The position numbers and the translations under genes are program-made. Positions 27,051-28,643 of a stretch of 64,000 nucleotides of DNA are shown piece after piece; position 1 is the first letter of the stretch; each line of letters opens with the position of its first letter. Below the pieces are notes generated by a model, which did not search any database, was not told the DNA's origin, and worked only from the letters and a program-made list of their open reading frames with translations. The DNA comes from Escherichia phage vB_EcoM_LNA6, in sequence record OM630585.1; one strand, 5' to 3'.

Positions 27051-27177
27051 TTGGCAGATTTTTTATAAGGCTACTGCCATCCTTCCATACCTTACCTTAC
27101 CACACCTAACCATACCTAACCAAACTACACCATACAATACCTTGTTAAAAGACCCTCTTAAAGACCTTTTAAAAAGG
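27051..27177 (-). repeat. GG-periodic intergenic repeat, copy A (G/T-rich on the transcribed minus strand)
   Basis: About 127 bp, about 75-80% identical by eye to 28310-28457; shared blocks TTGG(C/T)AGATTTTT, GGCTACT(G/A)CCATCC, CCATACCT, CTAACCAAACT, TTAAAGACCTTTTAAAAAGG. Confidence 0.6.
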
Positions 27178-27193
27178 AGCCTCCGAAGAGGCT
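27178..27193 (-). terminator. intrinsic terminator hairpin (minus strand) after gene 27205..27645
   Basis: AGCCTC-CGAA-GAGGCT hairpin; on the minus strand followed by CCTTTTTAAAAGG. Confidence 0.45.
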
Positions 27194-27204
27194 GCCTAGT
27201 CAAC

Positions 27205-27645
27205 TTAGAAAGGTTTTCTACGTTGCTTGTTAATGTTAGCTTTCATAGCAGCTAAATGGTTTTGCTGTTCAATTAGTCGTGAACGTTCTTGATGGCTAAG
27301 TGCCATAGTGTTCACATTCTCAATTGCTTGAGTGGCTTGCTTTAAAGCTCGACCAATCTTACCAGACATTTTACGTTTTGCAATAGTTGCTTGATGCTTA
27401 GGTTCAACCACACGATAACCAACACCCATTGAAGCAACCAGATAAATCTTCTCTTCTTTAAGAAGCTTCTCAATAAACTTCTCAAGTCGGTTTAGACGTG
27501 TAAGCGCATAAGCCTTCATTTCATCTTCGTACTTAACAATGTCACCTTGATAAGTTGGCTTCACAATACCTAAGAAGGTGTCCATCTCAGAATGTGATAC
27601 AGTGTCACCGTAACTAAACTTTGCTGCTAATGCTTTCGTATTCAT
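27205..27645 (-). CDS. hypothetical protein (repeat-flanked cassette gene 2)
   Basis: 146 aa ORF, basic C-terminus; no recognisable motif. Confidence 0.45.
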   Translation of the reverse strand: MNTKALAAKFSYGDTVSHSEMDTFLGIVKPTYQGDIVKYEDEMKAYALTRLNRLEKFIEKLLKEEKIYLVASMGVGYRVVEPKHQATIAKRKMSGKIGRALKQATQAIENVNTMALSHQERSRLIEQQNHLAAMKANINKQRRKPF

Positions 27646-27647
27646 AA

Positions 27648-28250
27648 TTAAACGTTACCTTCTGAAATAACTTCTACAGAAAAACGACCAAAGCGTGGAC
27701 GCCAATCACCTACACCACAAAGGTTACCAGCATTTTCAAGAACCATCAGAAGTTCCTCTTTGGTGATTTGCTCTTCATCGAACATCAAACCGAACTCTAC
27801 AGACCAGTCACGGAAGATTGGACGGTAGTTCATAACTCGTGCTGTACCAATCTTAACAGACTTAGCATAGATGAAGTCTGGATTCTTAGCAAGTTCTTGT
27901 GGGTTTGCTGGGCAGTTCTTGATAGTCATTGGGAAGACTACATCTGTCAGCATAATGGCTCGGTCAATTACCTTACCAAGTTTATTGAGTTTTGCACCAG
28001 ACTTGATACAAGCCTCAATCATCTCACCGTTCATAACAAAACCTAGTTGGTCATCGTAGTAGCAAGAAGTTACCAGTTGACTTTCTGCTAAGAGCGCATA
28101 GTCTTCGTCAGTCTTTTTACGTTTACTGGACAGAGACTTGTGATATTTTGTCAGAGGGTTTAATGGGTCTGACAGAGTATCTGCATGGCTCAGGAAAGGA
28201 CGAGTACCAGTGATTTTGATATTTAACAGTTTCATAGCATTTAGCTCCAC
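27648..28250 (-). CDS. hypothetical protein (repeat-flanked cassette gene 1)
   Basis: 200 aa ORF with GGAG RBS; no recognisable motif. Confidence 0.45.
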
Positions 28251-28309
28251 ACTTTAGTTGATTGTTAAGTTGTTTGTAAAGAACCCTCAACAGAAGACTC
28301 TTTAGAAAC

Positions 28310-28457
28310 TTGGTAGATTTTTAACGTGGCTACTACCATCCACCCATACCTCACATCACCATACCATACCTGACCGGACCTAACCAAACTCCACAGCACC
28401 ATACATCACATCACACAACCTTATTAAAAGCCCCTGTTTAAAGACCTTTTAAAAAGG
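28310..28457 (-). repeat. GG-periodic intergenic repeat, copy B1
   Basis: Homologous to 27051-27177; minus strand reads GG runs spaced about 5 nt apart. Confidence 0.6.
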
Positions 28458-28487
28458 TAAGTCTCATTTTAATGTAGCTGAGACTAA
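28458..28487 (-). terminator. terminator/attenuator-like hairpin within leader (minus strand)
   Basis: AGTCTCA ... TGAGACT 7 bp stem; on the minus strand followed by CCTTTTTAAAAGG. Confidence 0.4.
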
Positions 28488-28587
28488 CTACCCATACCAA
28501 ACAGCACCGCACTATGCCTTACCCCACCTCACCGAGCCTCGCCCCACATCACTTAAAAACCCTTTTCAAAGACTCTTAAGTGATGTT
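28488..28587 (-). repeat. partial/degenerate repeat copy B2 with 11 bp-stem hairpin
   Basis: CCATACC/CACC blocks and TTAAAAACCCTTTTCAAAGAC resembling the conserved 3' block; inverted repeat ACATCACTTAA/TTAAGTGATGT at about 28546-28587. Confidence 0.45.
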
Positions 28588-28615
28588 GGTGAGTACCCGT
28601 TGGTTTATGCTGCTC

Positions 28616-28643
28616 AGTATACTCACCAAATTTTCTATGTCAA
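28616..28643 (-). promoter_or_regulatory. sigma70-like promoter (minus strand, TTGACA-N16-TATACT)
   Basis: Minus-strand TTGACA = + 28638-28643; -10 TATACT = + 28616-28621; 16 nt spacer; directed into repeats B2/B1 and gene 27648..28250. Confidence 0.5.

Follow-up and report, generated by a model that had tools for sequence, protein, structure and literature searches.

Repeats around a two-gene cassette of a Felix O1-like Escherichia phage read as the guide-RNA genes of a type II VIPR locus

The 64,000-nucleotide stretch of Escherichia phage vB_EcoM_LNA6 analysed here (sequence record OM630585.1; hereafter the window) contains, on the minus strand of positions 27043-28643, what is almost certainly a complete type II VIPR (Viral Interference Programmable Repeat) locus, the repeats of which are vrRNA guide-RNA genes. 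This locus would comprise two vrRNA genes (C and B) placed behind their own promoter, then the vipr and vap1 genes and a third vrRNA gene (A); in each vrRNA, a leader hairpin is followed by 11-15 GGYNN pentads and then by a structured 3' tail. The assignment stands on five lines of evidence established in the present analysis, namely the identity of the proteins, the grammar of the repeats, the covariation of tails and leaders, the match to a target and the specificity of this match for a 1-nt skip. The locus is not new, because the system, its mechanism and the SUSP1 clade to which it belongs are already known from two 2026 bioRxiv preprints (10.64898/2026.04.26.720920 and 10.64898/2026.04.26.720927) and a PDB entry (36pp). 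The source phage is a Felix O1-like myovirus (Felixounavirus) infecting E. coli; over its region 26500-29500, in which the genes around the repeats are encoded by the minus strand, it has 99.1% identity with Escherichia phage Barry, and with dozens of Felix-like phages of E. coli, Salmonella and Shigella the identity is 92-98%.

According to the preprints, Vipr is a minimal RAMP protein (RRM core, G-loop and thumb) related to Cas5/6/7, and the vrRNAs consist of 9-16 YNNGG repeats with an invariable 3' tail, which forms a pseudoknot in the SUSP1 clade (10.64898/2026.04.26.720920, 10.64898/2026.04.26.720927). Each repeat is bound by one Vipr protomer, with G1 and G2 flipped into protein pockets and Y3 held in a pocket that excludes purines (10.64898/2026.04.26.720927). 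The NN bases pair with double-stranded DNA (dsDNA) that is read as NNxNNx (the '1-nt skip' rule), to form an R-loop triplex that silences transcription; there is no protospacer-adjacent motif, and the target is silenced, not cleaved (10.64898/2026.04.26.720920, 10.64898/2026.04.26.720927). For phage SUSP1, small-RNA sequencing (sRNA-seq) revealed the expression of one vrRNA from upstream of vipr-vap1 and of three from downstream (10.64898/2026.04.26.720920). The ~100-nt vrRNAs of SUSP1 co-purify with Vipr and direct dsDNA binding and silencing (sRNA-seq, pull-down, electrophoretic mobility shift assays, GFP repression and cryo-electron microscopy, or cryo-EM); most natural targets are located in an E. 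coli satellite, and such targets were found for only 20 of 41 guides (10.64898/2026.04.26.720920, 10.64898/2026.04.26.720927).

By analogy with this literature on SUSP1, from which RNA expression, ribonucleoprotein formation, DNA binding and silencing are drawn, we propose that Vipr protomers would polymerise along each vrRNA, one per pentad, burying GGY and presenting the two variable bases. The presented NN would pair with dsDNA as NNxNNx..., every third base being skipped, and the R-loop triplex would block transcription. The guides would be directed at competing mobile elements, and for vrRNA-B the predicted target of silencing is the large serine recombinase (integrase) gene of a parasitic satellite residing in the E. 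coli yecE/DUF72 gene.

The two proteins encoded between the repeats have nearly identical counterparts in phiSUSP1. The vipr product matches PDB 36pp_D ('SUSP1 Vipr protein') over residues 1-195 with about six substitutions (E=5.8e-128), shares 190 of its 195 residues (~97%) with the corresponding phiSUSP1 open reading frame (ORF) and possesses, as read off the sequence, all of the contact residues named in the preprint (H17, K33, E71, M72, R138, C173, D177, W178 and R179), among them the published GGY contacts H17, R138, D177, W178 and R179. The gene order is also that of phiSUSP1, where the ORF directly downstream of vipr encodes a protein identical at 145 of 146 positions to the one found here; this gene is named vap1 in the preprint (10.64898/2026.04.26.720920). 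Pfam returned nothing for either cassette protein and no Cas family among the flanking genes (vipr, vap1 and ligase), PHROGs returned only families of unknown function for both, and none of 519 Vipr homologues carried an informative name. In IMG/VR, unrelated viral contigs yielded at least 120 loci matching (GGTNN)6GGT, and many of these are large arrays with heterogeneous NN. In an all-versus-all BLASTP of the ORFs flanking these arrays, one family of ~200 amino acids, the Vipr homologue, appeared in 25 loci, where it lies on the same strand as a heterogeneous (GGYNN)n array and 4-80 nt upstream of it.

The grammar of the repeats was established on 66 unique tracts, which contain 513 in-phase pentads. 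Position 3 of the pentad is T in 90% and C in 10% of cases and never a purine, while positions 4-5 (NN) are nearly unconstrained; successive units are spaced by 5 nt in 513 cases and by 10 nt in 104, and degenerate units retain NGY rather than GG. Between the conserved hairpins the tracts are hypervariable in both sequence and length (67 unique out of 89 in close relatives), and they differ widely even among phages with 95-99% identical flanks. Across 25 IMG/VR loci, all of them Felix/SUSP-type contigs recovered with the leader-hairpin pattern, and phage wV8, the elements behave as modular units whose number varies from locus to locus. When applied to phiSUSP1, our unit count (one upstream, three downstream) equals the published sRNA-seq result (10.64898/2026.04.26.720920). 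Taken as coding sequence, the tracts were rejected, since the 5-nt period and the free NN give stop codons in every frame. The small ORFs lying over vrRNA-A (27063-27203, minus strand) and vrRNA-B (28265-28402, minus strand) have no Pfam or PHROG match, and one such ORF is annotated in phage Barry as hypothetical protein BARRY_0084 (L003 3266-3388); these are probably spurious gene calls over non-coding guide RNAs.

The elements had first been detected by a sequence-only reading of the window, and this detection from raw sequence was sound and concerned a genuine feature. As it had claimed, two homologous intergenic elements, A and B, align locally (z=34 versus shuffles in a pairwise alignment). 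They share the identical 20-mer TTAAAGACCTTTTAAAAAGG, which occurs exactly twice (27158-27177 and 28438-28457) where 0.01 occurrences are expected, and the blocks GGCTACT(G/A)CCATCC (27069-27082 and 28328-28341) and CTAACCAAACT (27116-27126 and 28380-28390). The third copy, C, had been called degenerate; its homology is upheld by a weaker alignment (z=5-7) and the same architecture, but it is a complete unit with a near-consensus promoter of its own. The reported recurrence of GG about every 5 nt on the minus strand is borne out by a period-5 CC score of the three tracts that lies ~20 standard deviations above the window mean, and no other 100-nt windows of the entire 64 kb are as C-rich and G-poor as these tracts. 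A generic detector of GG chains with ~5-nt spacing found no similar region elsewhere in the window, again in agreement with that reading, and, when run on the other 25.5 kb of phage Barry, which is nearly identical, no further tracts; the phage genome has no (GGYNN)n tracts outside elements A, B and C, which are on the minus strand. The hairpins with U-tracts described beside the copies are there (a terminator-like hairpin plus U5 at 27193-27178 precedes A, and C ends in a hairpin plus U5 abutting B), and so are the two bracketed genes (27205-27645 and 27648-28235).

In databases and earlier literature, parts of these elements bear only the GenBank labels 'repeat_region' or 'DR_4' (the latter in the wV8 record). 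There is no discussion of the repeats in the paper on the Felix O1 genome, and a search of the Felixounavirus literature found nothing on them. Rfam at gathering thresholds matched no family in the whole window, and ARAGORN reported nothing there.

Comparison of related copies points to structured RNA in the leaders and tails. In the leader hairpin, 6 of the 17 predicted pairs show compensatory changes among 25 variants. The tail stem AGUCUCA/UGAGACU is paired in 100% of 20 distinct tails, with compensatory changes at three of its seven pairs, and its covariation score was reached by none of 500 shuffles. The stems of the terminal tails covary too, as GGCAG/CUGCC in A, GGUAG/CUACC in B and GUCG/CGAC in the satellite copies. 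Furthermore, the long hairpins contain several G-U pairs, which would be C-A mismatches on the other strand and thus point to a minus-strand RNA; together with the orientation of the promoter and the terminator, they fit the minus-strand transcription that the sequence-only reading had assumed. Folding of the whole RNAs of units A and B gave unremarkable values (z=-1.3 and -1.4). It is the hairpins that carry the structural signal, rather than the GGYNN tract, as would be expected of a single strand bound by protein. The vrRNA promoter is kept in relatives, including phage SP116, which lacks vipr. The leader hairpin is not mentioned in the main text of either VIPR preprint (10.64898/2026.04.26.720920, 10.64898/2026.04.26.720927); this conserved hairpin of ~38 nt may serve as the processing or assembly punctuation of the array, in the role of a CRISPR repeat, and the fourth, guide-less hairpin that stands before the ribosome-binding site of vipr may be a processing or insulating element.

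As to the targets, the satellite was located through its baseplate gene, which has 91-95% nucleotide identity to positions 13486-14043 of the window (within the noted region 13465-14265) and occurs in 474 out of 5426 complete genomes of E. coli. This satellite (L150 2709-16354, L151-L155) is a 12-14 kb island in the yecE/DUF72 gene of E. coli, carrying genes for a methyltransferase, an HNH endonuclease, a tape-measure protein, a baseplate protein and a large serine recombinase; its tape-measure and baseplate genes resemble those of the phage. When one base is skipped, vrRNA-B matches 26 of its 30 NN positions (87%) at L150 15478-15521, inside the recombinase gene at codons 255-269, and the skipped bases fall on codon position 3. 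The same site scores 23-26 out of 30 in six satellite variants, as compared with 16-18 out of 30 under other skip rules and at most 21 out of 30 for permuted guides. Taking a match at 80% or more of the NN positions under the 1-nt skip rule as the criterion for a target, 34 of the 66 unique guides of the clade find one in six satellite loci at skip 1, against 2, 1 and 2 guides at skips 0, 2 and 3, respectively, and a single one for permuted guides. This result is an independent replication of the published skip-1 rule. None of the three guides has a self-target in the 64-kb window, where the best skip-1 matches (16/22 for A, 18/30 for B and 16/22 for C) stay below 80% and within the range of permuted guides.

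Several observations weigh against a complete and active VIPR locus. Even in the best satellite variant sampled, vrRNA-B has 4 NN mismatches. For vrRNA-A and vrRNA-C no target was found in the six satellite variants, their 15-17 matches out of 22 being at background; their exact patterns are absent from IMG/VR, and the exact pattern of vrRNA-C found no target in species-representative genomes. In the same genomes the exact pattern of vrRNA-A has only 15 matches, all in unrelated AT-rich taxa, which look like chance. The terminator-like hairpin between vap1 and vrRNA-A implies that transcription of vrRNA-A needs read-through; the same layout is expressed in SUSP1 (10.64898/2026.04.26.720920). 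Finally, the GUAG/CUAC stem of the proposed pseudoknot is invariant among internal tails, so that covariation neither supports nor refutes the knot, which rests on the cryo-EM structure of the preprint because this stem never varies. With two of the three guides lacking an identifiable target, four mismatches in the remaining one and vipr altogether lost in relatives, one might suppose that the locus is decaying in this phage, its architecture being kept and its activity lost, for instance through obsolete guides. We regard such decay as unlikely, for both vipr and vap1 are intact and differ very little from the SUSP1 genes, the activity of which has been shown by experiment, all three vrRNAs retain their GGY register, their tails and their promoter, and the preprint too found targets for only 20 of its 41 guides.

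The other explanations that we weighed deny the repeats a guide function. For the GG periodicity, the sequence-only reading had offered either arrayed protein-binding sites or two-tetrad G-quadruplexes. The former is right: in the published mechanism each GGY takes one Vipr protomer, and the vipr gene lies between the elements. The latter would have GG runs spaced by 5 nt fold, as RNA or DNA, into the structures that carry the function, and GG runs with 3-nt loops, in tracts that are 47% G, are formally compatible with it; it is nevertheless unneeded and a poor fit, as the loops of a G-quadruplex would not impose a position 3 that is never a purine, whereas a Vipr pocket that 'sterically excludes purines' does. 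Since neither this constant pyrimidine nor the NGY kept in degenerate units is required by a quadruplex, and the tracts occur together with a protein by which each GGY is bound singly, its guanines held flipped out, and the NN bases carry target information, we find a quadruplex function very improbable. An element acting at the DNA level, i.e., an R-loop-primed origin, an array of primase sites or Rho-utilisation sites on the C-rich strand, could be suspected from the strong strand asymmetry, the G-rich non-template strand behind a strong promoter and the nearby replication genes (ligase). It would leave unexplained the hypervariable NN with their target matches and the linkage to Vipr across unrelated phages, and the G-U pairs and compensatory changes of the hairpins indicate a minus-strand RNA; such an element is the least credible explanation of all.

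The trp leader of Bacillus subtilis consists of a 5' stem-loop, followed by some 11 triplet repeats that recur every 5 nt and then by a terminator; the vrRNA units resemble this arrangement. One could hence imagine a TRAP-like attenuator or protein sponge, in which a ring or filament protein seated on triplets with 2-nt spacers controls terminators or titrates a factor, with no guiding involved. The chances of this are very slim, given that the partner protein is a RAMP (Vipr) and not a TRAP homologue, and that the spacer dinucleotides, far from being neutral, match satellite genes only under the 1-nt skip rule. A TRAP-regulated leader in the strict sense was rejected on the motif (GGY instead of (G/U)AG), on the partner (Vipr instead of a TRAP, or MtrB, homologue) and on the lack of any Pfam match in the flanking proteins. 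We also discarded CsrA/Hfq sponges, boxA-like NusB/E sites, arrays of consensus RNA polymerase pauses, Chi-like sites, BREX GGTAAG sites, sponges for tRNA CCA ends and TerS/pac sites, all of which fail to explain both the pyrimidine at position 3 and the informative NN. A CRISPR-Cas array was dismissed as well, since a punctuation of ~75 nt (tail plus leader hairpin) alternates with GGYNN tracts of 55-75 nt, with no contiguous spacers and no Cas family. The statement of the sequence-only reading that the elements are not CRISPR-like holds for their form (no fixed repeat/spacer unit, no cas genes) but not for their function, that of programmable guide-RNA arrays served by a RAMP protein related to Cas5/6/7.

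The VIPR locus described here is closest to the type II VIPR of SUSP1, with which it shares Vipr (~97%), vap1 (145/146 identical), GGY/NN guides built from 9-16 units, the sequences of tail and leader, the position beside the DNA ligase gene and the class of target, a satellite of E. coli. It differs in the arrangement of the guides (two upstream and one downstream, versus one upstream and three downstream in SUSP1) and in their NN sequences; the phage, of the genus Felixounavirus and 99% identical to Barry, is not SUSP1 itself. With Class 1 CRISPR-Cas systems, in which Cas7-family RAMP filaments form on the crRNA, VIPR has in common a RAMP protein that polymerises on the guide RNA, a thumb that interrupts pairing periodically, several guides per array with conserved structured punctuation and variable targeting parts, and mobile elements as targets. 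Unlike CRISPR-Cas, it is encoded by the phage, has no cas1/cas2, no repeat/spacer units of fixed length and no contiguous spacer, and stores its information in two of every five guide bases, which are read against two of every three target bases. The trp leader bound by TRAP is similar in its triplets with 2-nt spacers, each taken by one subunit of a homo-oligomer, and in its flanking 5' stem-loop and terminator; it differs in its motif ((G/U)AG versus GGY), in the shape of the oligomer (an 11-mer ring versus a helical filament), in the protein fold and in its spacer bases, which carry no information.

The features of the locus are collected below.

Table 1. Features of the VIPR locus in the order in which they follow one another on the minus strand. 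Positions are those of the window. The promoters, hairpins, tails and terminator are predictions from sequence; NN dinucleotides are given in guide order.
Feature	Position	Strand	Description
Putative sigma-70-type promoter of the upstream vrRNA array	28616..28643	-	TTGACA-16-TATACT; 11/12 consensus positions
vrRNA-C leader hairpin	28547..28585	-	CAUCACUUAAGAGUCUUU..AGGGUUUUUAAGUGAUG; long stem; RNA spanning unit C folds with z=-3.4
vrRNA-C guide tract	28494..28548	-	11 GGY/NN pentads; NN: GG GA TC GA GG AA AT GC GC TT AT
vrRNA-C 3' tail	28451..28493	-	GGGUAGUUAGUCUCAGCUACAUUAAAAUGAGACUUACC, followed by U5; stems GUAG/CUAC and AGUCUCA/UGAGACU interleave as a putative pseudoknot
vrRNA-B leader hairpin	28419..28457	-	includes the identical 20-mer
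vrRNA-B guide tract	28346..28420	-	15 pentads; NN: TG GA GA AT GC GG TT TA CC CA AT AT GA GA AT
vrRNA-B terminal 3' tail	28312..28345	-	GGGUGGAUGGUAGUAGCCACGUUAAAAAUCUACC; stem GGUAG/CUACC
Fourth leader-type hairpin, no guide after it	28273..28308	-	between the vrRNA-B tail and the vipr ribosome-binding site; pairs throughout in the leader alignment
vipr	27648..28235	-	195 aa; RAMP-family guide-binding protein; PDB 36pp_D; phrog_4652
vap1 (VIPR accessory protein)	27205..27645	-	146 aa; phrog_5926
Intrinsic-terminator-like hairpin plus U5 after vap1	27171..27195	-	sequence prediction
vrRNA-A leader hairpin	27140..27177	-	includes the identical 20-mer
vrRNA-A guide tract	27087..27141	-	11 pentads; NN: AT AT GT TT TA AT TA GT AA AA AT
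vrRNA-A terminal 3' tail	27043..27086	-	GGAAGGAUGGCAGUAGCCUUAUAAAAAAUCUGCCAAAUAAGCUA; stems GGCAG/CUGCC and UAGCCUUAU/AUAAGCUA interleave; read from sequence
Promoter of the next gene (26577-26960)	26999..27033	-	VIPR locus end; better -10 by eye: TATACT

We noticed that vrRNA arrays also occur in the absence of vipr. In Salmonella phage SP116 (NC_027329; L172+L173), vipr and vap1 are missing genome-wide (tblastn E>1), while at 59360-59567 of the record (minus strand), flanked by the ligase gene and the Felix01p159 homologue, the promoter and two vrRNAs in register have been retained. The vipr-vap1 cassette of the window is bracketed by the identical 20-mers, and the SP116 junction is the expected product of recombination between these two copies (27158-27177 and 28438-28457); the state of SP116 looks like a deletion that arose in this way. 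Its guides still match the satellite at 83-85%. Such orphan vrRNA arrays may be common, because vipr at 90% identity or more is found in only ~117 records of Felix-like phages as compared with 230 for the A-like element. Loss of the cassette exactly at the 20-mers seems to have occurred in about half of the Felix-like phages, which keep a promoter-driven, in-register array that still matches the satellite.

Single vrRNA-like genes occur as well in islands and satellites of E. coli (L149 14985-15044, plus strand; L152 4135-4184, minus strand; L154 5507-5566, minus strand), each with a promoter, 10-12 GGYNN units and the tail GGGUGGAUUGUCGUAGCCACGUUAAAAAUCGAC, the stem of which shows a compensatory change relative to the phage copies. 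No vipr was found around them within loci of ~27-30 kb. A joint reading of these observations, which we put forward tentatively and think doubtful, is that the leader hairpin is the punctuation of the array and that orphan guides are loaded in trans by the Vipr of a co-infecting phage. If this were true, the guides would be a separately exchangeable currency of inter-phage conflict.

Unrelated IMG/VR contigs contain much larger (GGYNN)n arrays with other punctuation. L040 (minus-strand offsets 3395-3841) has 7 guides with the separator GGTAAGGCTAATGG, and L050 (2216-3404) at least 9 guides with the separator AAGGAATGGTTTAATGAATTTAAT, both with a Vipr homologue directly upstream; L126 (3232-4392) has 18 tracts. 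These three arrays are probably other VIPR types.

Elsewhere in the window, a 48-aa ORF (28651-28797, minus strand; phrog_22006), hydrophobic-looking, is located between the DNA ligase gene and the vrRNA promoter. Three near-identical intrinsic-terminator-like hairpins (AGGCTCCTTCGGGAGCCTTTTT) at 57757-57790, 61890-61923 and 63682-63715 (plus strand), in the plus-strand early region, resemble the hairpin after vap1. Diverged direct repeats (89 nt and 32-50 nt) occur on the plus strand at 21081-21829 and 22463-22710, inside the large ORF 20454-22793 and its neighbours, which are probably tail-fibre genes; these direct repeats correspond to the intragenic repeats reported for genes 76 and 77 of Felix O1.

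In VIPR, RNA-guided recognition of DNA takes a form that has been reported only recently: its code is non-contiguous, and its RAMP protein, of ~20 kDa, has been proposed to be older than CRISPR. The present case indicates that someone reading raw sequence can pick out the guide arrays. In an independent Felixounavirus, the rules laid down in the preprints (GGY/NN grammar, 1-nt skip, wobble-aligned satellite targets) are reproducible from sequence alone, and names can now be given to the 'repeat_region' or 'DR_4' features and intervening 'hypothetical proteins' of over 100 GenBank phage records. For phage therapy and engineering, it follows from the VIPR reading that Felix-like phages would carry a programmable silencer aimed at the satellites of their hosts.

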